Shown here: one piece after another, positions 1-25,566 of the stretch
Position numbering within the stretch: position 1 is the first letter of the stretch
Layout of the letters: each line of letters begins with the position of its first letter
NCBI GenBank assembly: GCA_016699145.1
Contig: CP064962.1
Coordinates: forward strand, 1,290,001-1,322,000
Source of the DNA: Candidatus Saccharimonadota bacterium
GTDB lineage: Bacteria; Patescibacteriota; Gracilibacteria; UBA1369; 2-02-FULL-48-14
DNA: 32,000 nt
Direction: 5' to 3'
Notes under the pieces: generated by a model
Told to the model about the DNA's origin: nothing
Databases searched by the model: none
What the model saw: only the letters and a program-made list of their open reading frames with translations
Program-made: the position numbers and the translations under genes

Positions 1-828
1 ATAGACCTCACTGGAACTGGTACAAGAAGTGGAGGGACCGATGCCCAAATCAGCACTACAATAGCAGCTGTTAAATATGCTCATAAAGTCACGGGACAGA
101 CAGAACTCAGTGGAAGCTTAACGACTGCGACAGTAACAGTCGGAGGGACGTCCTGCAGCGAATCGAGTGGAGTTTACTATTGCGCCACACCACTGGCTTC
201 AGATGGCGGAGTCAGTGACCTAATTGTGACCAAAGATGGCTATGTGACTTACACCGCTAACTCTACCAATCGTGCGACGAATTCAACCGCTCAGGCAACG
301 TATACTTCCAGCAACGCCTTCGCCTACAAAATTACGAGCATCACAACAGAAGTCCTATCCACGAACATCACGGGAAGCATCAGCACATTCACTGCAGGAG
401 ACAGCAGTGGACAAGACAACTGCACCCTAAATGGAGGCTCATGGTACTGCCCCGTACTGCTCACGAATAGTAATTTGGAACCAACCGGAACCGCTACCTT
501 GGATGGTTACGTAAGTGAGGCCCTGGATTTGACCGGCAGTGACATACGAATAAGCAACACAGATGCACAAATTTCAACGACTTTAAGCGGAATAAAATAT
601 GCTCACAAAGTCACCGGCCAGACGGAATTGGGGGGCGGCCTCACCGCAGCAACTGTAACGGTGGGAGGCACGACTTGCACAGAAAATTCTGGCACCTACT
701 ATTGCGCAACTCTCTTAGCGGACGACGGCGGTACAAACGACGTCATTGTCATAAAGGATGACTACCTTACTCACACCGAAAATTCGACCAATCGCAGCAC
801 AAATGCCACGGTCCAAGCCCTTTATGAA
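1..828 (+). repeat. Internal duplication of a ~101-aa Cys-pair beta-sandwich-like module (copy 1 nt 1-~303, copy 2 nt 523-~828, offset 522 nt) with a diverged related module between them
   Basis: My hand alignment of IDLTGTGTRSGGTDAQISTTIAAVKYAHKVTGQTEL...NSTNRATNSTAQATY against LDLTGSDIRISNTDAQISTTLSGIKYAHKVTGQTEL...NSTNRSTNATVQALY gives about two-thirds identity. Each module has a C-x5-6-(Y/W)YC pair. Confidence 0.75.
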
Positions 829-1488
829 ATCACTTTATATTCATCTGAAGAAGAACCCGAAGAAGAGCCCGAAGATGAACCCGAGGATGAACCCGAGGAT
901 GAACCCGAAGAACTTGAGCAAACCTCTCTCATTCAATTTCGATATTGCTACTTCGCCGATATCTCTTCTCATTGGGCAGAGCCCTACATTCTGGACTTGT
1001 GCGCGCGAAGCATAATGGACTCAAGTGAACCCTTTTTTAATCCCGATGAATTCATCACACGAGCTGAAATGGCTCAAATCACATGGATGAGTTTTGGCGA
1101 TCCCACAGCCGAAATCACCCTAGCTTCAGAATTGAAAACTTTTGAAGATGTGGCTCCCAACGATTGGTTCAGTGACTATGTGAATGGAGCTCGAACCATG
1201 GGTGCAATAGAAGGATATGCCGATGGAACCTTCCGTCCCAACCAACCACTCAACCGAGCCGAATGCATGAAAATCGTACTTTCAGCTTTGTCCTTAAGTG
1301 GAGAAATTTCCGAAGTGCCTTTTTCAGATGTGGATCAATCCGCGTGGTACGCTCCTTATATCGACTGGGCTTATCAAAACAACATCATTGATGGGAAAAA
1401 CGAAAATACTTTTGCTCCTCAAGATTTCATTACTCGTGCAGAAGTAACAAAAATAATCTCAAACATGCTCGATTATGCAAATCGTTAG
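1..1488 (+). CDS. SLH-domain cell-surface (S-layer-like) protein, 5'-partial; the reading frame is open from base 1, so the GTG at 226 in the ORF track is not the true start
   Basis: Frame 1 is open from nt 1 and the upstream translation (IDLTGTG...KYAHKVTGQTELSGSL...) repeats the module seen again from nt 523. The C-terminus carries three S-layer-homology-like segments (FADISSHWAEPYI...ITRAEMAQI; FEDVAPNDWFSDYV...LNRAECMKIV; FSDVDQSAWYAPYI...ITRAEVTKII). Stop codon at 1486-1488. Confidence 0.8.
   Translation: MDLTGTGTRSGGTDAQISTTIAAVKYAHKVTGQTELSGSLTTATVTVGGTSCSESSGVYYCATPLASDGGVSDLIVTKDGYVTYTANSTNRATNSTAQATYTSSNAFAYKITSITTEVLSTNITGSISTFTAGDSSGQDNCTLNGGSWYCPVLLTNSNLEPTGTATLDGYVSEALDLTGSDIRISNTDAQISTTLSGIKYAHKVTGQTELGGGLTAATVTVGGTTCTENSGTYYCATLLADDGGTNDVIVIKDDYLTHTENSTNRSTNATVQALYEITLYSSEEEPEEEPEDEPEDEPEDEPEELEQTSLIQFRYCYFADISSHWAEPYILDLCARSIMDSSEPFFNPDEFITRAEMAQITWMSFGDPTAEITLASELKTFEDVAPNDWFSDYVNGARTMGAIEGYADGTFRPNQPLNRAECMKIVLSALSLSGEISEVPFSDVDQSAWYAPYIDWAYQNNIIDGKNENTFAPQDFITRAEVTKIISNMLDYANR
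847..906 (+). repeat. Five tandem copies of a 12-nt repeat (GAR GAW GAR CCC) encoding an EEEP/EDEP acidic linker
   Basis: gaagaagaaccc gaagaagagccc gaagatgaaccc gaggatgaaccc gaggatgaaccc is read directly. It separates the repeat modules from the SLH triplet. Confidence 0.9.
952..1470 (+). other. Three tandem SLH (S-layer homology)-like domains (approx 952-1095, 1141-1290, 1321-1470)
   Basis: Each segment has the pattern F-x-D-(I/V)-x3-W-(A/F/Y)-x2-Y-(I/V) ... (I/L)-(T/N)-R-A-E, recognised by eye. No HMM was run. Confidence 0.65.
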
Positions 1489-3252: not shown

Positions 3253-3329
3253 GGGCCCATAGCTCAGTTGGCTAGAGCGCTTCCATGGCATGGAAGAGGC
3301 CGTCGGTTCAAGTCCGATTGGGTCCACCA
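3253..3329 (+). tRNA. tRNA-Ala (anticodon GGC) with encoded 3' CCA
   Basis: I folded the cloverleaf by hand. The acceptor stem is GGGCCCA/TGGGTCC with the G3:U70 alanine identity pair. The D arm is GCTC-AGTTGGCTA-GAGC, the anticodon arm is CTTCC-ATGGCAT-GGAAG (anticodon GGC), and the T arm is GTCGG-TTCAAGT-CCGAT. The discriminator is A, followed by CCA. Confidence 0.9.
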
Positions 3330-11419: not shown

Positions 11420-12664
11420 TTATTGCTTTTCCATTATGACGAGGTCCCATGGTAACACGAAATCATTCTTTGTGAGAGGGTAGGAGTTCTCCGTAGGCGC
11501 AAGGATGATACCGGGCCCTATATCCAAACGGGGGTAAGCTTCTCTAAAAGCTTGAATGCCACGTGCATCGGAGCGTTTTGGGTGGCTGTCGGCCTTGATT
11601 TCAATGGGAAAGTAACGACCATCTTTTTCTAAAATGAGATCGACTTCGGATCCGGAATGGAGCCGCCAATGATACAATTTAGGGGATGTACTCATGGCGC
11701 TGCATTGCTTGTGAAGCTCCATCACCACAGCAGTTTCAAAAAGTGCCCCTAAAAGAGGATGGCTTGCAATGCTTTGAGGTGAAGAAATGGCCTGCAGGGC
11801 ACAGACGAGTCCCGTATCTACGCAGTAGCCCTTAGGTTTTCGACTCAATCTTTTGATTAGATTTCCAGAAAAAGCAGGTATCTCAAACCACTGAAAACTA
11901 GCTTTAAGCAAGTCCAAATAATGTCTGGCAGTTTGAGGAGAAAGACCAAATTCTCGGCCCATCTGCGAATAGTTCACTTCTTGTGCGCTAAGTGCAGCGC
12001 TTAAAGCAACAAATCGATTGAAAAGTTGAAGATTGGATATATCCGCCATCAAGCGAACGTCACGTTCGATGTAGCTACGAATGTAAGATTGATAATAATC
12101 TGGAACCGTTTCTAGTGGAATCACTTGAGCTTCTGGGTAGAACCCCCTCCACAACTGTTCATAGAGTGTAGTTTTTTGTAGCGGGCGACTGTGTTTTGCT
12201 CTTAAAAAGGCTTCTGGATCTTTCAAGAAAGTGTCTAGCCATGGAGAAAAATCATCGTTGATTTCGTAAAAAGAAAAAGGAGGCAAATCCAAAAAAACAG
12301 CTCGTCCAGCTAGACTTTCAGAAATAGATTTCATGACACCCCACTGTTGAGAGCCAGTGATGATGTATTGACCTGGTTTACGATTCTTATCGACCCGGCG
12401 TTTAATCACAGCTAAAAGATCAGGGGCATATTGAATCTCATCTAAAATGAGTGGAGTGGGATGGTGGTCCAAAAAAAGCTCAGGATCCTGGCGAGCATTG
12501 CCAATATCAATCACAGGGTCAAAGACAATATAATCAAAGCCTGCGCCAAACTCATGATTGAGCAAGGTGCTTTTTCCCACTTGTCGCGCGCCTGAAAGAA
12601 CCACCACCGGGAAGGTTTCTACTAAAAACTTCAGTCTATCTGTGATCAATCGGCGTCTGTACAT
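11420..12664 (-). CDS. AAA+ ATPase with C-terminal DUF4143-type domain
   Basis: It has Walker A GARQVGKST and Walker B-like LILDEIQ. The length (414 aa) and the C-terminal EVDLILE...PIEIK pattern are typical of the AAA_14/DUF4143 family. Confidence 0.7.
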   Translation of the reverse strand: MYRRRLITDRLKFLVETFPVVVLSGARQVGKSTLLNHEFGAGFDYIVFDPVIDIGNARQDPELFLDHHPTPLILDEIQYAPDLLAVIKRRVDKNRKPGQYIITGSQQWGVMKSISESLAGRAVFLDLPPFSFYEINDDFSPWLDTFLKDPEAFLRAKHSRPLQKTTLYEQLWRGFYPEAQVIPLETVPDYYQSYIRSYIERDVRLMADISNLQLFNRFVALSAALSAQEVNYSQMGREFGLSPQTARHYLDLLKASFQWFEIPAFSGNLIKRLSRKPKGYCVDTGLVCALQAISSPQSIASHPLLGALFETAVVMELHKQCSAMSTSPKLYHWRLHSGSEVDLILEKDGRYFPIEIKADSHPKRSDARGIQAFREAYPRLDIGPGIILAPTENSYPLTKNDFVLPWDLVIMEKQ

Positions 12665-15080: not shown

Positions 15081-15704
15081 CTACTGAAGACTCTTTAGGA
15101 TGTCAAATAGTTTTTTCATCTTTTCATGTTCCGTTTGTGCGTACTCAAAACCATAAATGCGCTTCCCATACAAAGCGACCATGTGCACGGTCTTCACTTT
15201 ACTCTTATGATTGAAGTAAAACGAAGCATCTCCATACATGTTGACTTCATTCACGGTTCCCAGGTCGGGAAGAGCTTTAGCGGCTTCGCGCAAAGTCAAA
15301 TAAGCCTGAAAAGATCCGGTATCGGTCGGATAAACGATTTCATAAAAACTGCCCACATAGCGTTCTCCATCAAAAAAATTGAGTTGTGAAAGCTGGGACT
15401 GACTGGCATCGCTGAAGGGAATAATCTGAAAAATCAAGCCTGAAAAAAGAGCTTCTTTCACCACTGGAAGCGTAAAGCCCGCCTGGGTGAGCAAATCTCC
15501 AGTGATCCATGAAGGACTTTTTTCTTCTTGCAGTTCCACTTCTTCCTCCACAGGTTCCGTGTCCAGTGGCTCGGGGATTTCTTCCACGGTTTGATTCTCT
15601 TCCACCGCAGGGTCTTCACCCAAATAATCATGAAAAAGCACATCCACCGTCGCCAGCACCACGACTAGGGAAAGAAGCAGAGAAAATACGGTGAATTTTT
15701 GCAT
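15081..15704 (-). CDS. Hypothetical membrane-anchored protein (N-terminal TM/signal anchor, acidic E/P-rich linker, ~130-aa globular domain)
   Basis: [20 protein letters not shown] is the hydrophobic anchor and [21 protein letters not shown] the linker. I recognise no family. It sits co-directionally 17 nt downstream of nusG and 23 nt upstream of rplK. Confidence 0.6.
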
Positions 15705-16276: not shown

Positions 16277-16501
16277 TTAGGAAGAAAATTGTTCAAGAAC
16301 CCATTGATAAAGAGCGCTGAGACCGAAGTCGTAAGCGCCGAGCACAAGGGCGAAAAGAAGGGAAACGGCCACTACGATGCCCGTAAGGAGAGCGGCTTGT
16401 TCTTTGGTGGGCCAGGTGACCTTGCCAAATTCCTCAAAAGCTCCGACAAAGTAAGCCACAATGGGGTTCTTTGATTCGGAAGCGGATTTTTTTGCGTCCA
16501 T
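16277..16501 (-). CDS. secE: Preprotein translocase subunit SecE
   Basis: The 74-aa product MDAKKSASESKNPIVAYFVGAFEEFGKVTWPTKEQ... has a single C-terminal TM helix and sits directly upstream of nusG. The longer ORF to 16951 is a non-homologous extension running antisense to the next gene. Confidence 0.85.
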   Translation of the reverse strand: MDAKKSASESKNPIVAYFVGAFEEFGKVTWPTKEQAALLTGIVVAVSLLFALVLGAYDFGLSALYQWVLEQFSS

Positions 16502-16600
16502 AGTAACGTGAGTTATGCCAAAAAAGCCTTGGGGCTTCATGACAAGTTCCATTAAACAGCAAATGGAGCATAAAAAGCAAGTGCTTTCTTTCCTGTTTTG

Positions 16601-16609
16601 TGCTAAAAT
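16601..16609 (+). promoter_or_regulatory. Candidate extended -10 element (TGcTAAAAT) for the pilin-like/PKD operon
   Basis: TG at 16601-16602 and TAAAAT at 16604-16609 lie in an AT-rich stretch 20 nt upstream of the ATG at 16629. I found no good -35. Confidence 0.3.
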
Positions 16610-16628
16610 AATAAGAATAAATAAACGT

Positions 16629-17561
16629 ATGGCCTTCAAAATAGGTAAAAAACACCTTTGCAGCTTCTTGCTTTCGGTCGTGCTCGCCCTAGTCTTGAAC
16701 CTTACGCTGGGGGCCCTGCCCACCGCTTTTGCCAGCAGCTTTCTGCCTCTTCCTGGCACCGAAGGTTTGAACATTGCCACGCCTGAAGGAAACACGGCCA
16801 TAGAAAAACTGGAAAACTTTTTAGGCCCCTTCGCTCGCAATTTGCGCATCATTTTAGGGGGACTCGCCGTACTTTTCATTGTAGTTTCAGGGTTCACAAT
16901 GGTGGTTTCCGGCGACAACGAAGAAACTGCAAAAACGCAAAGAAAATCCATTGTTTACGGCTGCATCGGCCTCATGATGATCAGCATTGCCGGGCCCATC
17001 GCAGAGGTTTTTGACTACCGACAGGGCAATTTCATCAGCGATCCCTCGGACTTCACGGAGCGGGTCCGAATTTTTGACAATGTCACTCAACTCATCATCA
17101 CTTTCCTCAAATATCTTTTAGGAGGACTCGCCACGCTCATGGCCGTTCGGGCGGGAGCCATGCTCGTGATGTCAGGGGACAATGACGACGACGTGAGTAA
17201 GGCAAAAAAACAACTCACGCTCAGTCTAGCGGGTTTGATGCTCATTTTCGTTTCCAATTTGGTGATCCGTCGTATTTTCTATGTTGCCACTTACAGCACC
17301 AATGCCGAAGCCACCATCGTGCAACTGGACCAAAACGAATTCATTCGCCAACTCGTGGCTGTCACCAATTTGATGATCAGTTTCTTAGGCCCCATCATGA
17401 TGCTGGGCATTGTGATTGGAGGCTTCCTTTACGTGACTTCTCAAGGGGAAGAAGAAAAGACGGGTCTCGCCAAAAAAATCATCACCAATTCCATCATTGG
17501 AATCGTCATTATTTATGGAGCTTTTGCCCTTGTTTCAACTCTTATTGCAGGTCAATTCTAA
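16629..17561 (+). CDS. Secreted/polytopic membrane protein built from three tandem two-TM pilin-like hairpin modules (TrbC/VirB2-like, T4SS_pilin-type as I recall the family)
   Basis: It has a signal peptide, MAFKIGKKHLCSFLLSVVLALVLNLTLGALPTAFA. The three modules lie at nt 16842-17012, 17103-17279 and 17370-17546. Each is a hydrophobic helix, then (V/M/T)S(G/Q)(D/G)(N/E)(E/D)-x-(K)AKK, then a second hydrophobic helix, for example IGGFLYVTSQGEEEKTGLAKKIITNSIIGIVIIYGAFAL. ATG at 16629 is preferred over 16515 because the signal peptide begins there. Confidence 0.7.
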   Translation: MAFKIGKKHLCSFLLSVVLALVLNLTLGALPTAFASSFLPLPGTEGLNIATPEGNTAIEKLENFLGPFARNLRIILGGLAVLFIVVSGFTMVVSGDNEETAKTQRKSIVYGCIGLMMISIAGPIAEVFDYRQGNFISDPSDFTERVRIFDNVTQLIITFLKYLLGGLATLMAVRAGAMLVMSGDNDDDVSKAKKQLTLSLAGLMLIFVSNLVIRRIFYVATYSTNAEATIVQLDQNEFIRQLVAVTNLMISFLGPIMMLGIVIGGFLYVTSQGEEEKTGLAKKIITNSIIGIVIIYGAFALVSTLIAGQF

Positions 17562-17564
17562 TTC

Positions 17565-18506
17565 ATGAAAAAAATCCTCTTCACTTTCGCCCTCGCTGTG
17601 CTCGCCTCCACCGCACCCCATGTGGCAGCCACGAGCATTCAATTCCAAGAAATTTTGGATGATTTTCAAGAAGACGTAGCCAGCGAAAGTCAAGATGTGC
17701 AAGAAGGAGCAGAAGGCATCACCTTGCCCAATTTCAGTGAAGATGCTGAGGAAGGGGCCGACATCATTGTGTTGACCATCCGCCGTTTTTTGGACTTTTT
17801 TAAACTGATTGTGGCTCCTTTTGCCGTGCTGTTCGCCGTCATCATGGGGGTACGCATGGTCTCTGCAGGTCAAGAAAATGAAGAAGTGGCAGGACAAGCA
17901 AAAAATTTCATCCGCTACGCCTTGGAAGGTCTCATCATTATTTTTATGTCCGATTCCATTGTGAATGTGATGTTTGGCGCCGAAGGAGAAGTCTTCAGAG
18001 AAGGACAAGCGGGAGTGCAAGAGTTTGCAACGCGCAGCAGCAATCTTTTTAAAGGGATTTATACTTTGGTTCAAACCGTCATCGCCTCCATTGCCGTCTT
18101 TGTACTGGTCATGGCCGGGATGCGTTACGTGGTGGGTTCCACCAGTGACGACCAAATCGGTAAAGCCAAAAATCAGATCAAATGGGCCTTTGTGGGTCTT
18201 TTTGTGATTGGGATTTCTGAATTTGTGGTCAAAGATATCCTCTTTGAAAACTATGGACAAACTCTGGGAATCGAATCCGCCAAAGAACTCTTTGTGGATC
18301 TCACCAATTTTGTTTCAGGCACTTTGGGAACCTTGGCTTTCGTCATGCTCATTTACGCAGGTTTTTTATACCTCACCGCTTCTCAAAACGAGGACAATGC
18401 CGCTAAAGCCAAGAAGATCATTTTTGCCGCTTTGATTGGAATTGTGATCGCCATTTCGGCCTTTGCCATCACAAACACCTTTGTGGAGCTTGATGCTTCC
18501 CGATAA
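17565..18506 (+). CDS. Paralogous triple pilin-like hairpin membrane protein
   Basis: It has a signal peptide, MKKILFTFALAVLASTAPHVAA, followed by an acidic N-terminal region. The modules lie at nt 17796-17975, 18066-18245 and 18309-18485, for example IYAGFLYLTASQNEDNAAKAKKIIFAALIGIVIAISAFAI. It starts 3 nt after the upstream stop. Confidence 0.7.
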   Translation: MKKILFTFALAVLASTAPHVAATSIQFQEILDDFQEDVASESQDVQEGAEGITLPNFSEDAEEGADIIVLTIRRFLDFFKLIVAPFAVLFAVIMGVRMVSAGQENEEVAGQAKNFIRYALEGLIIIFMSDSIVNVMFGAEGEVFREGQAGVQEFATRSSNLFKGIYTLVQTVIASIAVFVLVMAGMRYVVGSTSDDQIGKAKNQIKWAFVGLFVIGISEFVVKDILFENYGQTLGIESAKELFVDLTNFVSGTLGTLAFVMLIYAGFLYLTASQNEDNAAKAKKIIFAALIGIVIAISAFAITNTFVELDASR

Positions 18507-18520
18507 CTCTCTATAATACT

Positions 18521-21500
18521 ATGGAAAGAATCCTCGCCATGACTTTAAAACCTCGTACCTTTCTCGCGACCCTGCTCCTCTTGAGCGGTCTCCTAACGGC
18601 CGTTCCGGTGGCTCAAGCCATCAGCGTTCCCATTGGGGATCAAGACTTGGAACAAGGGGATTTACAACCTGAAGATTGTGCCAATTTGGATGAAAGCTTA
18701 GCGGGTGCATTTGGCTGTGACACCAGCGATACCGTCACCGATTTTGTGGACTTCACCGGGGAATTGGAAGGACCCGATGCCGCCGGTTACGACGAAGCTC
18801 TCACCGAAAACACCAATGCGCGCGATTTCATTCAATCCGTCGTCAACTTTGCACTTTCTTTTGTGGGACTGATTTGTGTGGTCACCGTCATTTACGGAGG
18901 TCTCTTGTATGTGACCAGCCGTGGGGACGAAGAGCAAACCTCCAAAGCCAAAAAAGCCATCACTTATTCAGTGATTGGAATTGTGATCATCATGGGGTCC
19001 TTTGCCTTTGTGAACACCATTTTGCAGGTGGGCGGCGGGGGAAGCACAGGAGACGGCAACGGCACGGCTTTGAATGGAGAGACCATCAATGAATCGGGCG
19101 CCGCCTTCGACGTGAAAGACGTGCTCGACGAAATCGAACAAATCACCGAAGAATATGTGGAAGCCTATCAAACCTTGCTCGCAGTGAATAAAGAAGTGTC
19201 CTCGATGCAAGCCTTAGAAATGCCCGTAGTGGTGGAAGTGACAGAAAGGGAAAGAAGTTTAGGAGGAGTGATCGACTTCACCACCGAATATTTTACCGGT
19301 GAAGACGACGATTTCGCCGACACCTATACGGTTTTGGAAGAAGCGAGAGTGGATGCTTACACCACCAGCCTCGCTCGTGCCGCTCAAAACATCATGTCCG
19401 AAACCGATGCCCTGAGTGACACTTATGAAGACGCTTATCAATTGTATCAATATTTGCAATACGGCAGCCGAAATTTTGTGGCAGACGGTGACCCTGAGGC
19501 AGAGGCGTGTAACACGCTGAGTTTCAACGTTCGCGATAGAGAAGTGAATGGGAATTTGGGCTGGACCCGAACCGATGCCGAGGTGCAAGTGGTGGATCCT
19601 TACATTTGCAACTACATTGCCGCCATTTTGCAAAGCGCGGAATCCGACTACTTAGAAGTGATTGGAGATTCAGGTGTGGGGCTCATCGGTCGCTTTGAAG
19701 AATTGAAAGCGCTTTTCGACGTCAGTGAAAATGCAAGCGGTTCCAATCTCACCGGCATTGTGATGGCTTTGTCCAACGCACAAACCGCTTTGACCAATGC
19801 AAAAACCGTGATCAGCAACAGCACTATTCAAGAGATCCAATACGCTATGAACGAGCTTTATGAATTGGTGAAAAATGTCGAATTCGTTCAAGTGAGACTC
19901 ACCGCTACGGTGGTGGAGGGCAATGCGCCTTTGTTGGTGCGTTTTGATATTTTGGGTACGGAAGATCCCAGCGGAAACACAGTGGAAGATGCTCAAATTC
20001 AATGGGATTTGGATGGAAATGGAGTTTATGACGAAGCCGCAGTGGGTGAAGATTTAGGCGCAGATTCCATCAGTTACATTTTTGATCAAGCAGGCACTTA
20101 TAGAGTCAAAGTACGGGTGCTCAGTTCAGAACCCGACATTGCAGCAGGAGTTTCCACAGTGAGCATTCGAGTGCAGCCCGCAAAATCCCTCATCGTCATC
20201 AACGCCACAGTCGGTTCCAATGGCCCTCAAGCCATCGCCAACTTCATTCAGTCGCCAGCCATCAATAAGCCCAAGTTCAAAGTCACGGCCTCGGAAGCCT
20301 CCTCAGAAGCAGGGATTTTATTCGACGCCTCAGAAAGCACTGATGGAGAAGGAAACGTGTCTGGAATTCGCTATTATGAATGGGACTTTGGGGACAATGA
20401 AACAGAAGCCGGCAATTTTGAGCAAGCGGCCACCATTCGTCATTTCTATGCTCAAGAAGGAGTCTATGACGTGTCGCTGACCGTCACCGATCAAGATGGC
20501 GTGAAAGACAGCAAATACTTTAAACTTTACGTTGCCACCCCTGCAGCTCGCATCAATGCGTCTCCGGCCCTGGGCATCGCAGGCACGACCTTCACCTTAG
20601 ATGGATCTTCCTCCACCGCGGATGTCGGTTCGATTCGAAACTATCAATGGTCAGTGAGCAAGCAAGGAGGCGCCGCCATAAACCTTTCTCAAAACACCGG
20701 AAGCAGCATTCAAGTCACTTTAAACGAGCCTGGAATTTATGATGTGAACCTGAACGTATCCGACACTTCCTCTAAATCGGATGCAGCCACCGCCTTCGTG
20801 GTGGTGGAATCTCAAGCTCCTGTGGTGACTTACACCTATGAAATTGAAAATGAAAATCAGCCCTCCATTGTCACTTTCGACGCTCGAAACAGTTACGATC
20901 CCGACCCCAACGACCGCTTGGAATTTTCTTGGGATTTCGGCGGCTTTGAAGGGGAGGATTACATCATTCTAGAAGAATCGGAAGATCAATCGGAAGTCAC
21001 CGTTCAATTCTTAGACACCGGGGCTTACACCGTGCTGCTCACGGGTCACGATCAACACCCGCAGGCCATTCAAAAAAGCGACACAGCCACCGCCACCATT
21101 CAGGTGAATTCTATTTTGGATGTCGACCTCACAGTGAGCGGAGATGAAGCGCGGCATTTGAACCAAGATGGAGAAGCCGAAGTGGAATTCACTGCAGAAA
21201 GTGAATTCGGCTCCGCCTTTCAAATTGAATATGGAGACGGGGAAGTGGATTTTACCGACACACTCACCAATGGAAGAGCCATTTTCACTCATACTTACAA
21301 GCAAGCGGGGGTCTTTTATGTGAAACTCACCACCTACGATGACTCCGAACAGGAAGAAACCAACACCGACACTGTTCGTGTCTACATTGGCTCGGGCAAC
21401 GCCCCCATTGCCGTGATTGGAATTGGAGCCGAAAACACCGACATCGGTACAGGGCCCAGTTTTGTGGGCAGCGTGAAAACAACCTTCACCTTCTCTGCAA

Positions 21501-23368
21501 GCAATTCTGTGAATGTGGACGGCAGCAATCAAAACCTAACTTACAGTTGGAATTTTGGAGATGGCAGCACGGCGAATCAAGCGACCGTTACCCATAAATT
21601 TACAGAAAAAGCCACCTACAACGTCACCCTCACTGTGAAAGATAAAAACGACCCCAGCATCAGTGATGAAGCCGTGGTTCCCATTCAAATTCAAGGCATT
21701 GAGCCCAAAATCCAAAGCATTTCAGTGGTTCCCGTAAGCACCACCGAACTCACCACACCCCTCAAGGTCAACGTCTCGGTTACTGCTTCTGATGACGATG
21801 GAAAAATCACTTACATAAGAGGCTGGTATTACGACTTGGACGATTCCGCCACTCCACTCGGAACCGTGATTTCAGAATCCGGAAACTTCACTCTCACGCT
21901 CAACACCAACGGAGAAGAAGGTGAAAATAAAGAATACGGTTTTGCCGTGGAAGTCACCGACAACGACAACCAAACAGTGTCCAGTTTTGATCAACTCGAT
22001 CCCGCAGACATCCCCACGCTTTCTGTCATCAACGGGCCCAACGACAGTCCCGTAGCCTCTTTTTCAGTGGATAAATCTTCTCGTTACGTGGGGGAAGAAG
22101 TCACCTTTTCAAGCCTTTCTTACGACCCCGATGGAGAAATCGTGACCTACTGGTGGGACATTGAAGGCGATGGATTTTACAACAATGAGCCGACCCAAGT
22201 CAGCTCCTACACTTATGAATTTTCTCAAGTGCACAGTGAAGGCATCCCCGTGCGCTTAAAAGTGGAAGACAGTGCGGGCGCTACGGCTGAATCCGAACCC
22301 GTGATGATTTATGTGGACTCTTTGGCAGAAGATCCTGATGCCAAGTTTTTAACCGACATCGATGGCACTTATGTTCAGTTCCGTAACAATTCTTTTGTCG
22401 ACAGTGAAAACGGCGCAGAACTCGCCGGCACGTATTGGGATTTTGACCTGCAAAACGACAGCGATGGCAATGGAGTCAAAGACGACGACTTCGATTCTTT
22501 TGAAGAAAATCCCACATACAATTACGAAGAATTCGGTGTTTATAAAGTCAAAATGACCGTGGTGGACACCGTTGGACAAAGCGACACCGTGACGCAAGAC
22601 ATTGAAGTCAAAGAAACCGCCGCACCCGTGGCTGCCTTCACCTTCACCGTAGATGAAAAAAACGTTACTTTTAGGAACACCAGCACCGTGGACACCGAAC
22701 ATGGAGTGGACGTGCGCACTTACGCCTGGGATTTCGACACCACTCTAGATTCCAATGGCGATTCAGAAACGGACAATGACACTGATGCAGAATTGAAAAA
22801 CCCAAGCCACGAATACGCGGATTACGGCACTTATGAAGTGACCCTCACCGTGGTGGATACCTATGGAAAAATCGACACGGTCACTCAAACGGTGGAAATT
22901 GAAAATCCCATTCAAGCCTTGAATGCCATCTTAAGCAGCGTGCCTCAAGCCAATTCTTTGTCTCAAATTCTATTGAGGCAAGATGGCCAAGAAGTCAGTT
23001 TCTATTTTGGAGCCGAAGGGGGCAGTGAAGACTATCATTTCAGCTTGGATAAAAACATTTTTTACGACAGCAACGCGGATGGAATACGCGACAACGACGA
23101 AGATTACAGCTCTTCTTCACCGGGTTCTTGGAAAACTCCTTTCTTCATTTCTTACGGACAAATCGTGACCAAACTCACCGTAACCGACAATGAAACCGGC
23201 GACAGAGACATCAGCACCCTTCAAGTGGTCTTTGAAGGACACTTGGGAAGTGCTAATCTGTTCAATGCCACGCCCAAACAAATGGCACTGCTCATCTTGA
23301 GCGCCGCACTCACGGCTGCACTTGGAGTGAGCATGGCCTTTCGTTACAAACCTTTACCACGCCGCTAA
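18521..23368 (+). CDS. Giant (1615 aa) surface protein: signal peptide, one pilin-like hairpin module, ~290-aa helical region, ~11 PKD-like domains, C-terminal TM anchor
   Basis: The signal peptide is LATLLLLSGLLTAVPVAQA. The hairpin module at nt 18848-19024 reads IYGGLLYVTSRGDEEQTSKAKKAITYSVIGIVIIMGSFAF. PKD-type motifs recur (YEWDFGDN, YSWNFGDGSTANQATVTHKFTEKATYNVTLTVKD, YAWDFD...). The C-terminal sequence is MALLILSAALTAALGVSMAFRYKPLPRR. Confidence 0.8.
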   Translation: MERILAMTLKPRTFLATLLLLSGLLTAVPVAQAISVPIGDQDLEQGDLQPEDCANLDESLAGAFGCDTSDTVTDFVDFTGELEGPDAAGYDEALTENTNARDFIQSVVNFALSFVGLICVVTVIYGGLLYVTSRGDEEQTSKAKKAITYSVIGIVIIMGSFAFVNTILQVGGGGSTGDGNGTALNGETINESGAAFDVKDVLDEIEQITEEYVEAYQTLLAVNKEVSSMQALEMPVVVEVTERERSLGGVIDFTTEYFTGEDDDFADTYTVLEEARVDAYTTSLARAAQNIMSETDALSDTYEDAYQLYQYLQYGSRNFVADGDPEAEACNTLSFNVRDREVNGNLGWTRTDAEVQVVDPYICNYIAAILQSAESDYLEVIGDSGVGLIGRFEELKALFDVSENASGSNLTGIVMALSNAQTALTNAKTVISNSTIQEIQYAMNELYELVKNVEFVQVRLTATVVEGNAPLLVRFDILGTEDPSGNTVEDAQIQWDLDGNGVYDEAAVGEDLGADSISYIFDQAGTYRVKVRVLSSEPDIAAGVSTVSIRVQPAKSLIVINATVGSNGPQAIANFIQSPAINKPKFKVTASEASSEAGILFDASESTDGEGNVSGIRYYEWDFGDNETEAGNFEQAATIRHFYAQEGVYDVSLTVTDQDGVKDSKYFKLYVATPAARINASPALGIAGTTFTLDGSSSTADVGSIRNYQWSVSKQGGAAINLSQNTGSSIQVTLNEPGIYDVNLNVSDTSSKSDAATAFVVVESQAPVVTYTYEIENENQPSIVTFDARNSYDPDPNDRLEFSWDFGGFEGEDYIILEESEDQSEVTVQFLDTGAYTVLLTGHDQHPQAIQKSDTATATIQVNSILDVDLTVSGDEARHLNQDGEAEVEFTAESEFGSAFQIEYGDGEVDFTDTLTNGRAIFTHTYKQAGVFYVKLTTYDDSEQEETNTDTVRVYIGSGNAPIAVIGIGAENTDIGTGPSFVGSVKTTFTFSASNSVNVDGSNQNLTYSWNFGDGSTANQATVTHKFTEKATYNVTLTVKDKNDPSISDEAVVPIQIQGIEPKIQSISVVPVSTTELTTPLKVNVSVTASDDDGKITYIRGWYYDLDDSATPLGTVISESGNFTLTLNTNGEEGENKEYGFAVEVTDNDNQTVSSFDQLDPADIPTLSVINGPNDSPVASFSVDKSSRYVGEEVTFSSLSYDPDGEIVTYWWDIEGDGFYNNEPTQVSSYTYEFSQVHSEGIPVRLKVEDSAGATAESEPVMIYVDSLAEDPDAKFLTDIDGTYVQFRNNSFVDSENGAELAGTYWDFDLQNDSDGNGVKDDDFDSFEENPTYNYEEFGVYKVKMTVVDTVGQSDTVTQDIEVKETAAPVAAFTFTVDEKNVTFRNTSTVDTEHGVDVRTYAWDFDTTLDSNGDSETDNDTDAELKNPSHEYADYGTYEVTLTVVDTYGKIDTVTQTVEIENPIQALNAILSSVPQANSLSQILLRQDGQEVSFYFGAEGGSEDYHFSLDKNIFYDSNADGIRDNDEDYSSSSPGSWKTPFFISYGQIVTKLTVTDNETGDRDISTLQVVFEGHLGSANLFNATPKQMALLILSAALTAALGVSMAFRYKPLPRR
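19895..23236 (+). repeat. Array of ~11 PKD-like Ig-fold domains (protein-level repeats, diverged at DNA level)
   Basis: I counted by hand the recurrence of W-x-(F/L)-(G/D)-(D/G) ... Y-x-V-x-L-x-V-x-D blocks roughly every 85-110 aa. Confidence 0.7.
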
Positions 23369-23370
23369 TT

Positions 23371-25566
23371 ATGGATGTCACGCCCAATCCAATTCCAGAA
23401 AACAATCCAAATTTGGAAATGAAACCGAGTCCTGAGCCTGTGCCAAATGCTCCGTCACCTTTGCAAAATCCAGCGCCTCTGCAAAATTCCGCCTCTTTGC
23501 CCAATCCTGCTCCCAAAAAAACTCTGACTCCCGAAGAAAAAAAAGTCCAGCGCCAGGCCACGTTAAAACGCTTGGCCACGGTTTCAGTCGCCCTTTATGT
23601 CTTTCTTTTGTTGTTGATTTTTGCCTGGGGCACCTTCACCGCAGGGGTAGAACTCACGGTTTTTGATTACCTGCCGCTCAGCCAGAACACCTTCAGTGGA
23701 GCCTTGATGACTTTGTTTCATATTCTCTTAGGAGCCAGCGTTTTTATTTTGTTCTTCTACAGTTTAGTGGCTCTCCTTAAGTCCATGTTCACCAAAAAAG
23801 AAGAGGTGGAAAAAAAGAAAAAAGCGTCTCGAAAAGCATTGCTCGGAGGCTTGACCTTTCTCCTGTTTGCAGCCGCTTGGTTGGCGGGCATTTGGTATTT
23901 GGGGCCTCGTTTGGTGCTTACCGATCTTTACGAGTCTCCCATCAAAACCATTCCCACTCAAACGCTGGGTTTGACTTCTCCCGTTGAAATTCGTTTCGAT
24001 GCCAGTGGAATTCCGGTGGACACCAAGCTTTATAGAATTCTTTCTTACACCTGGGATTTTGGAGATGGAGCCACGGCCAATGGAGTCAGCACTGCACACA
24101 CTTACACGCAAAAAGCCACTGGAAACGGAATTTACACCGTGCTTCTTTCCGTGCGTTATGCCGATCTGAGCACGGGTGAACAATTTGAAGACACTTTCAA
24201 AACCACCGTGGCCATTGCCAATGAAAAGACAGCCGCCTATTTCACGGCCAATCCTGAAGCAGGGGAATTGCCCTTGAAAGTGCATTTCGACGCCACCAGT
24301 TCTTATGATCCCGACGGGGAAATTGTGGCCTACGAATGGGATTTCGACAACGACGGAAGTTTTGATGATGGAGAAGGAGAAGAAATCGATCACACCTTCA
24401 CTCAAGAAGGGGACTACCTCGTGTCTTTGCGCGTCACCGACAACAGTGGTGAATACAACACGGCCAGTCTCACCATTGAAGCGGGAAGCATTGGAGGCTT
24501 GCGTGCCGTCATCACCACCAACGTCGCAGAAGGGGAAGCCTACTACTTGGACGAAGAATATAAATTCGATGGCTCTCTTTCACAAATTGGAGAAGGGAAA
24601 ATCACTCAATACAGCTGGGATTTTGGAGATGGCAGTGTTGCCGTAAAGACGCGTTCCGTCAATCACCGTTTTGAAGCAGTGGGAGTTTATACGGTGGTGC
24701 TCACCGTGACCGATCCCGAAGGCAACAGCGATGAAAGCACGCTCGAAGTTCGGGTGGTGGAAGAAGGCTCCGCTCCCGAGGCAAAAATTTCTACGCTTCC
24801 AGCTTTAGAAAATAGAGCCGTTACGGGTCCGGTTCCTTTAGAAGTTCGTTTTGATGCCACTGCTTCTTTCGATGAAGAAAACGACATCGTGGACTATGAA
24901 TGGGATTTCGACAACGATGGAACGGTAGATGACACTGGGGACACCGCTACCCACACGTATCAAGTAGAAGGCTCTTTTGAAGCCCGCCTCATCACCACCG
25001 ACTCGGTTGGGAATGTGGACGAAGCCCTCGTGCCCATTGAAGTGACAGCTCAAGGACTCATCGCTCGTCTCGAAATCGATCAAAGCAATGGAGAAGTGCC
25101 GCTCACCGTTGAATTCGACGCCAGCGCATCGACCTACAAAGAAGGCAACATTGTCTCTTATGAATACGATTTTGGGGATGGAAGTGACAGCTACATTGGA
25201 GGCTCCAGCGTCACATATCGTTACAATGCCGTGGGTACTTTCACCGCCAGCGTCACCGTGATCGCGAGCGACGGAAAAAGAGGCAGCACCAGCGTTCAAA
25301 TTGTCGTTCGTCCTGTGGCTTTGACGGCTTGTTTCACCGTGAACACCGATTCCGGACAAGCACCCCTCTTCGTTTCTGTGGATCCTTCCTGTTCGGAGGG
25401 CACCGTGGATTCCTATCATTGGGATTTTGGCGACGGGGAAATCAGTTTTGACCGCAAACCCGAAACCCACACCTATTCCACTCCCGGCACCTACACCATC
25501 ACTTTAGAAGTGACCAGTGCAGAAGGAATCGTCAGCGTCTTTGAAAATGAAATCACCGTGCGCTAA
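23371..25566 (+). CDS. Polytopic membrane protein with Pro/Asn-rich N-terminal tail, 3 TM helices and 6 PKD domains
   Basis: The N-terminal tail reads PNPIPENNPNLEMKPSPEPVPNAPSPLQNPAPLQNSASLPNPAP. The TM helices are VSVALYVFLLLLIFAWGTF, ALMTLFHILLGASVFILFFYSLVALL and LLGGLTFLLFAAAWLAGIWYLG. Six WDFGDG/WDFDNDG PKD blocks follow. It starts 2 nt after the upstream stop. Confidence 0.8.
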   Translation: MDVTPNPIPENNPNLEMKPSPEPVPNAPSPLQNPAPLQNSASLPNPAPKKTLTPEEKKVQRQATLKRLATVSVALYVFLLLLIFAWGTFTAGVELTVFDYLPLSQNTFSGALMTLFHILLGASVFILFFYSLVALLKSMFTKKEEVEKKKKASRKALLGGLTFLLFAAAWLAGIWYLGPRLVLTDLYESPIKTIPTQTLGLTSPVEIRFDASGIPVDTKLYRILSYTWDFGDGATANGVSTAHTYTQKATGNGIYTVLLSVRYADLSTGEQFEDTFKTTVAIANEKTAAYFTANPEAGELPLKVHFDATSSYDPDGEIVAYEWDFDNDGSFDDGEGEEIDHTFTQEGDYLVSLRVTDNSGEYNTASLTIEAGSIGGLRAVITTNVAEGEAYYLDEEYKFDGSLSQIGEGKITQYSWDFGDGSVAVKTRSVNHRFEAVGVYTVVLTVTDPEGNSDESTLEVRVVEEGSAPEAKISTLPALENRAVTGPVPLEVRFDATASFDEENDIVDYEWDFDNDGTVDDTGDTATHTYQVEGSFEARLITTDSVGNVDEALVPIEVTAQGLIARLEIDQSNGEVPLTVEFDASASTYKEGNIVSYEYDFGDGSDSYIGGSSVTYRYNAVGTFTASVTVIASDGKRGSTSVQIVVRPVALTACFTVNTDSGQAPLFVSVDPSCSEGTVDSYHWDFGDGEISFDRKPETHTYSTPGTYTITLEVTSAEGIVSVFENEITVR
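23978..25563 (+). repeat. Array of 6 PKD domains
   Basis: The six blocks are SYTWDFGDGATANG, AYEWDFDNDGSFDDG, QYSWDFGDGSVAV, DYEWDFDNDGTVDD, SYEYDFGDGSDSY and SYHWDFGDGEISF. Each is followed by a Y-T-V/L-x-L-x-V-type strand. Confidence 0.8.

Follow-up and report, generated by a model that had tools for sequence, protein, structure and literature searches.

A conserved operon of fused VirB2-like pilin modules and PKD-domain proteins in Peregrinibacteria and Peribacteria

Introduction

A large part of bacterial diversity belongs to the Patescibacteria, whose way of life appears to be attachment to other cells; the Peregrinibacteria and Peribacteria are ultra-small and probably host-attached bacteria. 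Patescibacteria have VirB2-like pilin arrays, which proved essential in the only species where this was tested. This study concerns a four-gene operon (genes A to D) in a stretch of 32,000 nucleotides (nt), hereafter the window, which spans positions 1,290,001 to 1,322,000 of contig CP064962.1 (assembly GCA_016699145.1, named Candidatus Saccharimonadota bacterium and placed by GTDB in the Gracilibacteria). Genes A, B and C encode seven TrbC/VirB2-type pilin hairpins in a 3+3+1 arrangement, C and D encode 17 PKD domains, and the same gene order is kept in about 30 related genomes.

Layout of the operon

The four genes lie on the plus strand, separated by only 3 (A-B), 14 (B-C) and 2 nt (C-D), and diverge from secE, as an earlier note on this DNA had described and the list of open reading frames (ORFs) confirms. 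Lengths are given in amino acids (aa).

16277-16501, minus strand: secE, divergent from the operon; identified from its translation and from SecE/NusG Pfam labels at the same place in related loci L001-L004
16502-16628: AT-rich divergent intergenic region of 127 nt, presumed to be the operon promoter region
16629-17561, plus strand: gene A, 310 aa; the ATG at 16629 lies inside ORF 16515-17561, and orthologues have 307-322 aa
17565-18506, plus strand: gene B, 313 aa
18521-23368, plus strand: gene C, 1615 aa
23371-25566, plus strand: gene D, 731 aa

Pilin hairpin modules in A, B and C

A module recurring across the first three genes had been likened to the TrbC/VirB2 pilin hairpin, and hidden Markov model (HMM) searches uphold both the count and the family. 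The T4SS_pilin family PF18895 (T4SS, type IV secretion system) matches A in three stretches (E 6.6e-22, 77.8 bits), B in three (E 3.6e-28, 97.9 bits) and C in one (E 6.3e-11, 42.6 bits), all above the curated cut-off of 26.6 bits. The TrbC/VirB2 family PF04956 stays just under threshold in the window proteins (26.4 against 27.9 bits; TrbC E 1e-3 in C). Among the orthologues of C, all 29 match PF18895 and 27 of the 29 match PF04956 at E ≤ 0.1 (best E 1.1e-7). The NCBIfam model NF045849 gives 45 bits for A, 57 for B and 39 for C against a cut-off of 40, the scores of A and B being sums over three modules and the model a single module of 80 positions. By these profile matches, the modules are TrbC/VirB2-type pilin hairpins.

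16812-17018, plus strand: module A1, aa 62-130; position-specific orthology in 31/31
17070-17288, plus strand: module A2, aa 148-220; position-specific orthology in 30/31
17340-17558, plus strand: module A3, aa 238-310, a "third-type" module
17760-17984, plus strand: module B1, aa 66-140
18036-18254, plus strand: module B2, aa 158-230
18282-18503, plus strand: module B3, aa 240-313
18806-19036, plus strand: module C1, aa 96-172; matched by PF18895 and TrbC

The seven modules align nearly without gaps at 17-50% identity. Common to them are a helix 1 with a conserved Gly, a loop of the form (S/G)xx(D/N)E(E/D)...KAKK and a helix 2 with a Gly near its start. Compared by position, A1 and B1 are 32% identical, A2 and B2 28% and A3 and B3 36%, while C1 and A3 reach 49-50%; A and B are therefore duplicates of an ancestral three-module gene, and the module of C is of the third type. 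A and B are not small single-module subunits, since each holds three modules, and C joins its one module to about 1440 further residues.

Hydropathy gives A and B a signal peptide and six transmembrane (TM) helices each, and signal peptide ends were placed by eye at AFA|S near aa 35 in A, VAA|T near aa 22 in B and AQA|I in C. The linkers between modules are about 18-30 aa long and hold invariant Gly, Glu and Arg positions; no small-x-small motif was seen in their consensus by eye. An AlphaFold2 (AF2) model of B built from 62 homologues (predicted local distance difference test, pLDDT, 75; predicted template modelling score, pTM, 0.50) has three long helical hairpins, at 64-104/106-137, 142-190/195-226 and 236-273/276-311. 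Sequence searches of the PDB with B and C profiles gave nothing meaningful, and a tblastn search of B against PLSDB plasmids gave no match.

PKD arrays and other parts of C and D

Protein C runs from a signal peptide through a Cys-containing N-terminal ectodomain segment, the module, a linker domain and 11 PKD domains to a C-terminal anchor. By hydropathy, its signal peptide is followed by a single TM pair and, at the C-terminal end, by a TM helix at aa 1589-1607. Protein D has a Pro-rich N-terminus, a signal-anchor TM helix, a hairpin of two TM helices around a basic loop, six PKD domains and a free C-terminus. By hydropathy, its TM helices lie at 68-86, 118-136 and 156-174, the last two joined by KSMFTKKEEVEKKKKASRK.

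19037-19894, plus strand: linker domain of C, aa 173-458 (about 290 aa), predicted to be mostly alpha-helical, with conserved Cys330 and Cys363
19895-23227, plus strand: PKD array of C, aa 459-1569, nine firm and two marginal domains
23246-23365, plus strand: C-terminal tripartite signal of C, aa 1576-1615, comprising GSANLFNATP, the TM helix at aa 1589-1607 and the basic tail RYKPLPRR
23692-23916, plus strand: hairpin of D, aa 108-182, a probable degenerate eighth pilin-like module
23959-25554, plus strand: PKD array of D, aa 197-728, six domains

The 17 PKD domains counted in the earlier note comprise 15 firm and two weak ones. Pfam finds nine stretches in C and six in D (families PF18911/PF00801; PKD_4 at E 3e-69 in C and 3e-87 in D), and a PKD profile derived from the locus finds 11 and six, the marginal domains of C being at aa 1070-1158 and 1489-1569.

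The linker domain of C has no relative in Pfam or the PDB; homology searches returned one match for aa 1-480 and none for the linker (aa 172-458), and an AF2 model of the N-terminus made from two sequences was unusable (pLDDT 43.7). Two pairs of conserved Cys residues, C53/C66 and C330/C363, fall in parts of C predicted to lie outside. The tripartite end is kept in most orthologues as G(S/G)ANLFNATP, or as SGANNVFVVPG in a divergent group, followed by a TM helix and a basic tail. This layout is like that of sortase or exosortase sorting signals; no NCBIfam sorting-signal model matches it and no processing enzyme was identified.

In the more divergent relatives, D is followed by a fifth gene, of 647-1071 aa (L004 at 18154-20271; also L033, L034, L035, L037 and L040). 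It encodes a protein with an anchor at the N-terminus and a large ectodomain; the C-terminal motif (S/T)AxTGPE, a TM helix and a Lys-rich tail form an end that resembles a variant sortase signal.

The hairpin of D was earlier said to resemble the modules. No Pfam pilin family matches D. An hhalign comparison of 27 D N-termini with 238 modules gave 89% probability (P 2.4e-6) over 66 columns with helix, loop and helix in register; NF045849 weakly matches aa 115-171 of D (E 0.008), and the D orthologue of locus L031 passes the module HMM used here. The hairpin is thus probably a degenerate eighth pilin module, judged by these profile comparisons.

Predicted membrane topology

A single inferred topology scheme would obey the positive-inside rule in all four proteins. 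Signal peptides would be cut, and every hairpin of A to C would start and end outside, leaving its acidic/KAKK loop on the inner side of the cytoplasmic membrane. With both hairpin ends outside, all 17 PKD domains would lie outside as well. The basic tail RYKPLPRR of C would be inside, so that C would be tethered at both ends. In D, the basic Pro-rich N-terminus would be cytoplasmic, TM1 would run outward and TM2 inward, KSMFTKKEEVEKKKKASRK would lie inside, and TM3 would lead outward to the six PKD domains. Both large proteins look membrane-retained, C through its C-terminal TM helix and basic tail and D through its extra N-terminal TM helix and Pro-rich tail.

Conservation in Peribacteria and Peregrinibacteria

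Protein B matches, at 100% identity, IPG41_07145 on a 1,338,973-bp contig of a Candidatus Peregrinibacteria metagenome-assembled genome. Its relatives form 119 protein clusters, and the full-length ones among these mostly have about 300-355 aa. Related loci were sought with a 30-sequence alignment. The operon order is repeated on three large contigs (B homologues 59%, 60% and 32% identical) and occurs in 30 species-representative genomes named Peribacteria, Peregrinibacteria or "Gracilibacteria". Every locus that is long enough has the same order, namely a three-module gene of about 310 aa, a three-module gene of about 320 aa, a gene with one module and PKD domains, and a gene with six PKD domains (pil3-pil3-pil1PKD-PKD6). 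Orthologues of C have about 1530-1710 aa with 7-10 PKD domains and those of D about 700-810 aa. The order holds down to about 27-32% identity in B, and the locus almost always adjoins secE, nusG, a gene of no known family, rplK and rplA.

This neighbourhood survey, which the earlier note had proposed as a check, found four-gene synteny to be strict in about 30 species-level genomes, and repetition gene for gene in that many other genomes puts the pattern far beyond chance. The conservation extends to single modules. Across 31 loci, 209 of 211 modules have as nearest relative the module at the same position in another genome, with identities of 43-62% between equivalent positions and 20-36% across positions. 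Given this position-specific orthology, the seven positions represent seven paralogues that are old and not interchangeable. Present in single copy and inherited vertically, the operon is a core feature of the lineage, and the fixed 3+3+1(+1) layout is what is specific to that lineage.

Secretion machinery

The earlier note had reported that no secretion machinery lies nearby, and this is true of the window and of the related loci. Pfam scans found no VirB4, VirD4, VirB6 or other type IV component in the window, which takes in 16.6 kilobases (kb) upstream of the operon and 6.4 kb downstream. In about 30 related genomes, or about 70 related loci altogether, the 10 kb around the array likewise hold no VirB4-like ATPase. 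A metagenome scan with the third-type module added 79 loci, some 40 of them at least 5 kb long. In these 40 or so, a Walker-A filter flagged 14 proteins of at least 450 aa; the nine scanned with Pfam were not VirB4 but FtsK, UvrA, SMC, FtsH, IF-2 or a PilB-type T2SSE ATPase.

The absence is less striking than the earlier note took it to be. Quinonero-Coronel et al. (2025; PMC12102498) found VirB4 in 2417 of 3035 Patescibacteria assemblies and VirB2-like pilins (PF18895/PF04956) in 1948 of those with VirB4. Pilins were near virB4 in just 1135 of these 1948 and away from it in 813. The survey lists 441 arrays of 2-11 pilin genes with a mean identity of 25%, reports that T4SS parts are typically dispersed in the class Gracilibacteria, and detected no PrgB-type adhesin. 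A pilin array far from its machinery is therefore ordinary for the phylum. The self-contained structure that the earlier note suggested is a conjecture. The survey mentions neither fused modules nor PKD domains, and the available part of its genome table has no entries named Peregrinibacteria or Peribacter.

In Southlakia epibionticum, Wang et al. (2023) described an essential T4SS cluster with a series of predicted pilins, unusual for a monoderm (PMC10633639), and a 2025 review counts six VirB2-like pilins in this species (PMC12857230). The Peribacter genome paper names large exported proteins, S-layer genes, sortase, type II secretion and type IV pili, and neither a T4SS nor this operon. Literature searches combining Peregrinibacteria with VirB4 or type IV secretion returned nothing relevant.

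Related modules in other lineages

Modules of this kind are widespread. A profile of the seven modules, run against 1.84 billion representative proteins, matched 60,560 at E ≤ 1e-3. Almost all of the top 150 are multi-module proteins with 2-17 stretches, nearly all with at least three. With 60-84 bits, several multi-module relatives score well over the TrbC/VirB2 threshold, a result that links the module family to bona fide VirB2. Among the multi-module proteins, one of 1775 aa with 17 modules is encoded at 10001-15328 of L043 (GCA_975902405.1), a contig whose gene content is archaeal (L39e ribosomal protein); no T4SS gene lies in the 10 kb upstream or in the remaining 3.3 kb of contig downstream. 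Another relative, P0216 from Candidatus Altiarchaeales, has ten modules, and in archaeal contigs such polypeptides of 10-17 modules occur on their own. Other fusions join two PKD domains to seven modules, or modules to a coiled coil, to Cys-rich ectodomains or to an ectodomain with a zincin-like HExxH motif (found by eye).

Linkage of modules to PKD proteins also recurs in other arrangements. Locus L044 has an eight-module gene, a single module, one module with PKD domains and a PKD6 gene; L008 has single pilins, one triple and two PKD proteins; L056 and L057 have the order pil1-pil1-PKD6, and L083 has pil1, pil1PKD8 and PKD. Such fusion and fission of the same parts among lineages is the pattern expected of the subunits of one complex. 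The earlier note knew of no characterised system with this architecture. Literature searches indeed found no paper on a 3+3+1+PKD arrangement, and nothing relevant for PKD with VirB2, but polypeptides of 3-17 concatenated modules, and PKD linkage in other arrangements, are widespread in metagenomes.

Further Candidate Phyla Radiation (CPR) lineages, such as Doudnabacteria, have arrays of three to seven pilin genes, mostly single-module (L010-L012, L103, L109 and L112). These adjoin ftsH, and mostly also smc, rather than a T4SS ATPase.

Genomic neighbourhood

On the minus strand beyond secE lie nusG, a conserved 207-aa gene of no family, rplK and rplA. On the other side, a class-II lyase gene converges with D, the two stop codons overlapping, and RlmE and RsmG (translations read by eye) follow just downstream; in L001 and L003, Pfam gives the genes at the corresponding places the labels FtsJ and GidB. 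The 20 other substantial ORFs of the window have only housekeeping functions by Pfam or belong to no family. Among them are purD, purF, folD, tmk, dut, Sua5, Maf, S20, an RsmE-type methyltransferase and pol X, together with an S-layer-homology (SLH) protein and an AAA_14/DUF4143 protein, the sole additional ATPase. A consensus scan for promoters and terminators at the operon found nothing above chance. One sigma-70-like site on the plus strand (18490-18517; TTGATG, 16 nt, TATAAT; 10/12 matches) lies in the end of B and the 14-nt gap before C. Such sites are no commoner in the region than in shuffled sequence, and this one may mean nothing.

The 207-aa protein (15081-15704, minus strand) splits the nusG-rplK junction, where normally no gene intervenes. 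It combines an N-terminal TM helix and an acidic linker with a conserved domain of about 130 aa, and its gene is kept at this spot in at least 26 related loci, with nusG and secE between it and the operon. Checked as a possible VirB8-like protein, it has no relative in Pfam, NCBIfam or the PDB. As its gene is two genes away from the operon, a functional link, for instance as a VirB8-like bitopic partner, is conceivable.

Several other features of the window were recorded. The AAA_14/DUF4143 ATPase gene (11420-12664, minus strand), between tmk and dut, was not found there by homology annotation in the related loci, a few of which have an ORF without identification at this place, and looks like a local insertion. 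A 420-aa protein (226-1488, plus strand) has three SLH domains, which suggests, as far as sequence goes, that the organism has an S-layer tethered to a cell-wall polymer. A tRNA-Ala(GGC) at 3253-3329 (plus strand) overlaps the listed start (3290) of the Sua5/TsaC ORF, so the true start of that gene lies further downstream.

Plus-strand GC skew is negative almost throughout the window, and the operon has rsmG (gidB) just downstream. Two large records have the operon within about 40 kb of the record start (L023, OZ246396.1 17182-38081 of 1,306,353 bp; L001, 6581-27549 of 1,316,577 bp); in two other large contigs it is mid-contig. The skew, the nearby rsmG and the two record starts hint that the operon may be origin-proximal, like T4SS genes reported in some Patescibacteria.

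Comparison with known systems

The closest likeness is to the T4SS pilin arrays of Patescibacteria (S. epibionticum SEML1_0006-0019; PMC12102498), which share PF18895/PF04956 and a monoderm CPR host. Those arrays consist of two to eleven adjacent, divergent pilin units, and the operon has seven modules in three adjacent genes. Adjacent paralogues in the survey are about 25% identical, compared with 17-50% for the operon modules, and pilin counts are also comparable (six in S. epibionticum, 2-11 in the surveyed arrays and seven, or eight, modules here). The operon differs in that its units are not separate genes but a 3+3+1 fusion kept in about 30 genomes, in that one module is fused to a PKD protein of 1400 aa with a second PKD protein always linked, and in its housekeeping neighbourhood (secE-nusG) without VirB4, VirB6 or TrsD nearby.

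The modules also resemble the TrbC/VirB2/TraA pilins of the F pilus and T pilus in their signal peptide, two hydrophobic helices, short charged loop and PF04956 profile. Classical conjugative pilins are single-module proteins of about 70-120 aa whose genes adjoin virB3/virB4 and which polymerise with phospholipid, whereas the operon encodes trimers joined covalently and one giant fusion, and no machinery adjoins it. A further likeness is to the pilin-like protein Mbov_0395/MMCAP2_0565 of Mycoplasma integrative and conjugative elements (NF045849; A 45 and B 57 bits), again from monoderm hosts. That protein belongs to a mobile element, while the operon is chromosomal, vertically inherited and not on such an element.

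With PKD-repeat adhesins and S-layer-associated proteins, C and D share tandem PKD/immunoglobulin (Ig)-like domains and surface exposure (predicted here). They differ from them in being anchored through a hairpin, of the pilin family in C and pilin-like and preceded by a signal anchor in D, and in belonging to a poly-pilin operon. Bartonella and Anaplasma have consecutive copies of virB2 (cited in PMC12102498), and these are thought to serve antigenic or host-range variation. The strict position-specific conservation of the operon modules argues instead that they are obligately used together and are not alternatives.

Interpretation and alternatives

We read the operon as the Peregrinibacteria/Peribacteria form of the Patescibacteria VirB2-like array, remodelled by gene fusion into a previously undescribed variant. 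Its product, on our evaluation of the sequence evidence, has about an even chance of being a VirB2-like heteromer that is rooted in the membrane, has a fixed stoichiometry and presents PKD adhesins. The seven hairpins and the degenerate eighth in D would pack side by side like VirB2 protomers, the fusions would fix the stoichiometry of one heteromeric membrane-rooted assembly, and A and B would form its body. C and D would stay rooted, and their Ig-like PKD chains would project as adhesins or spacers that serve contact with another cell or a surface. If A and B were extruded as a short pilus, a VirB4 encoded elsewhere would be needed, there being no ATPase in cis. Several points weigh against this assembly. 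The pTM of the B model is just 0.50, hairpin-hairpin contact has no direct support, and a Foldseek search of the model against the PDB found nothing specific. Support for a relationship between the D hairpin and pilins is only moderate, and profile scores can be raised by TM segments; for the PKD domains, a role as adhesins is taken from their family. Finally, the homologous array of S. epibionticum sits inside an essential T4SS cluster (PMC10633639), and the 2417 of 3035 Patescibacteria assemblies with VirB4 (PMC12102498) make an extended, T4SS-built pilus quite possible.

Such a canonical T4SS pilus, which we hold to be possible if on the unlikely side, would have A and B as covalently trimerised major pilins, extracted and polymerised by a VirB4/VirB6-type apparatus at another locus. 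C would enter through its single module as a pilus-associated adhesin, and the locus would be an ordinary, if fused, T4SS component. The position of the homologous Saccharibacteria arrays inside an essential T4SS cluster (PMC10633639, PMC12857230) speaks for it, as do VirB4 in about 80% of Patescibacteria assemblies, the dispersal of parts in Gracilibacteria and the pilins lying away from virB4 in 813 of 1948 assemblies (PMC12102498). By our own reasoning, linkers of about 18-30 aa with both module ends outside are also sterically compatible with a VirB2-type lattice. However, no VirB4 lies within 10 kb in about 70 loci, the anchoring of C at both ends and the cytoplasmic tail of D argue against extraction of either into a filament, and the Peribacter genome paper names type II secretion and type IV pili, not a T4SS. 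VirB4 is likewise undocumented in the lineage as far as the available part of the PMC12102498 table goes, where Peregrinibacteria-named genomes do not appear. A further possibility, a T4SS-independent, lipid-embedded and heteromeric PF18895 "poly-pilin" raft, ring or stalk that would self-assemble after Sec export and root surface adhesins, is an unlikely one on the sequence evidence.

The hairpins might be generic, reused two-helix anchors that do not co-assemble, leaving a PKD-rich surface layer and two polytopic proteins. The size of the module family (60,560 representative proteins), the fusion of modules to many unrelated ectodomains (Cys-rich, coiled coil, HExxH protein, PKD) and the 10-17-module polypeptides that stand alone in archaeal contigs are all in keeping with anchors. 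This explanation is nevertheless quite improbable: seven individually conserved positions with conserved linkers are hard to explain by it, A and B have no ectodomain to anchor, and the strict four-gene linkage points to joint function. Alternatively, A and B could be polyprotein precursors that signal peptidase or another protease cuts after each second helix, releasing six single-hairpin pilins. On inspection of the sequence, each basic KAKK loop and second helix do look like the n region and h region of a signal peptide within the chain, and related lineages encode modules as separate genes. We consider this very improbable, as the linkers lack small-x-small motifs, their invariant Gly, Glu and Arg suggest structured connectors (both judged by eye), and the three-module length is kept in about 119 protein clusters. 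CPR bacteria also build Ig-fold pili without trans-envelope machinery (bioRxiv 10.64898/2026.03.03.709456), and C and D could in principle be Ig-domain subunits of such a Pam-type, donor-strand-exchange filament, as the NCBIfam model NF058578 (PamR) matches them weakly (44.5 and 36.5 bits). These scores are so far below the 300-bit cut-off that Pam identity is effectively refuted, and generic similarity between Ig/FnIII (fibronectin type III) and PKD folds explains them. No other pilus-related label occurs in the window or its flanks (Pfam, NCBIfam, homology annotation), in a search that included no screen aimed at PamA/B or PapD-like chaperones, and Pam is reported predominantly in Saccharimonadia and Microgenomatia (bioRxiv 10.64898/2026.03.03.709456).

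Implications

Should the T4SS-independent raft, ring or stalk prove true, the structure would be universal in Peribacteria and Peregrinibacteria. Poly-pilin structures of 3-17 fused modules would then be widespread in other CPR bacteria and in DPANN/Altiarchaeales archaea, and the essential pilin arrays of Patescibacteria would be obligate hetero-oligomers rather than antigenic variants. The 3+3+1 fusion of individually conserved paralogues itself argues that the modules work jointly and in fixed proportion, not as alternatives. As a single-copy, vertically inherited core operon beside secE-nusG, the locus is a good marker for the lineage and a tractable target for cryo-electron tomography, proteomics and multimer modelling. 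The obligatory coupling to PKD proteins, in one case covalent, nominates these proteins as the missing adhesins.

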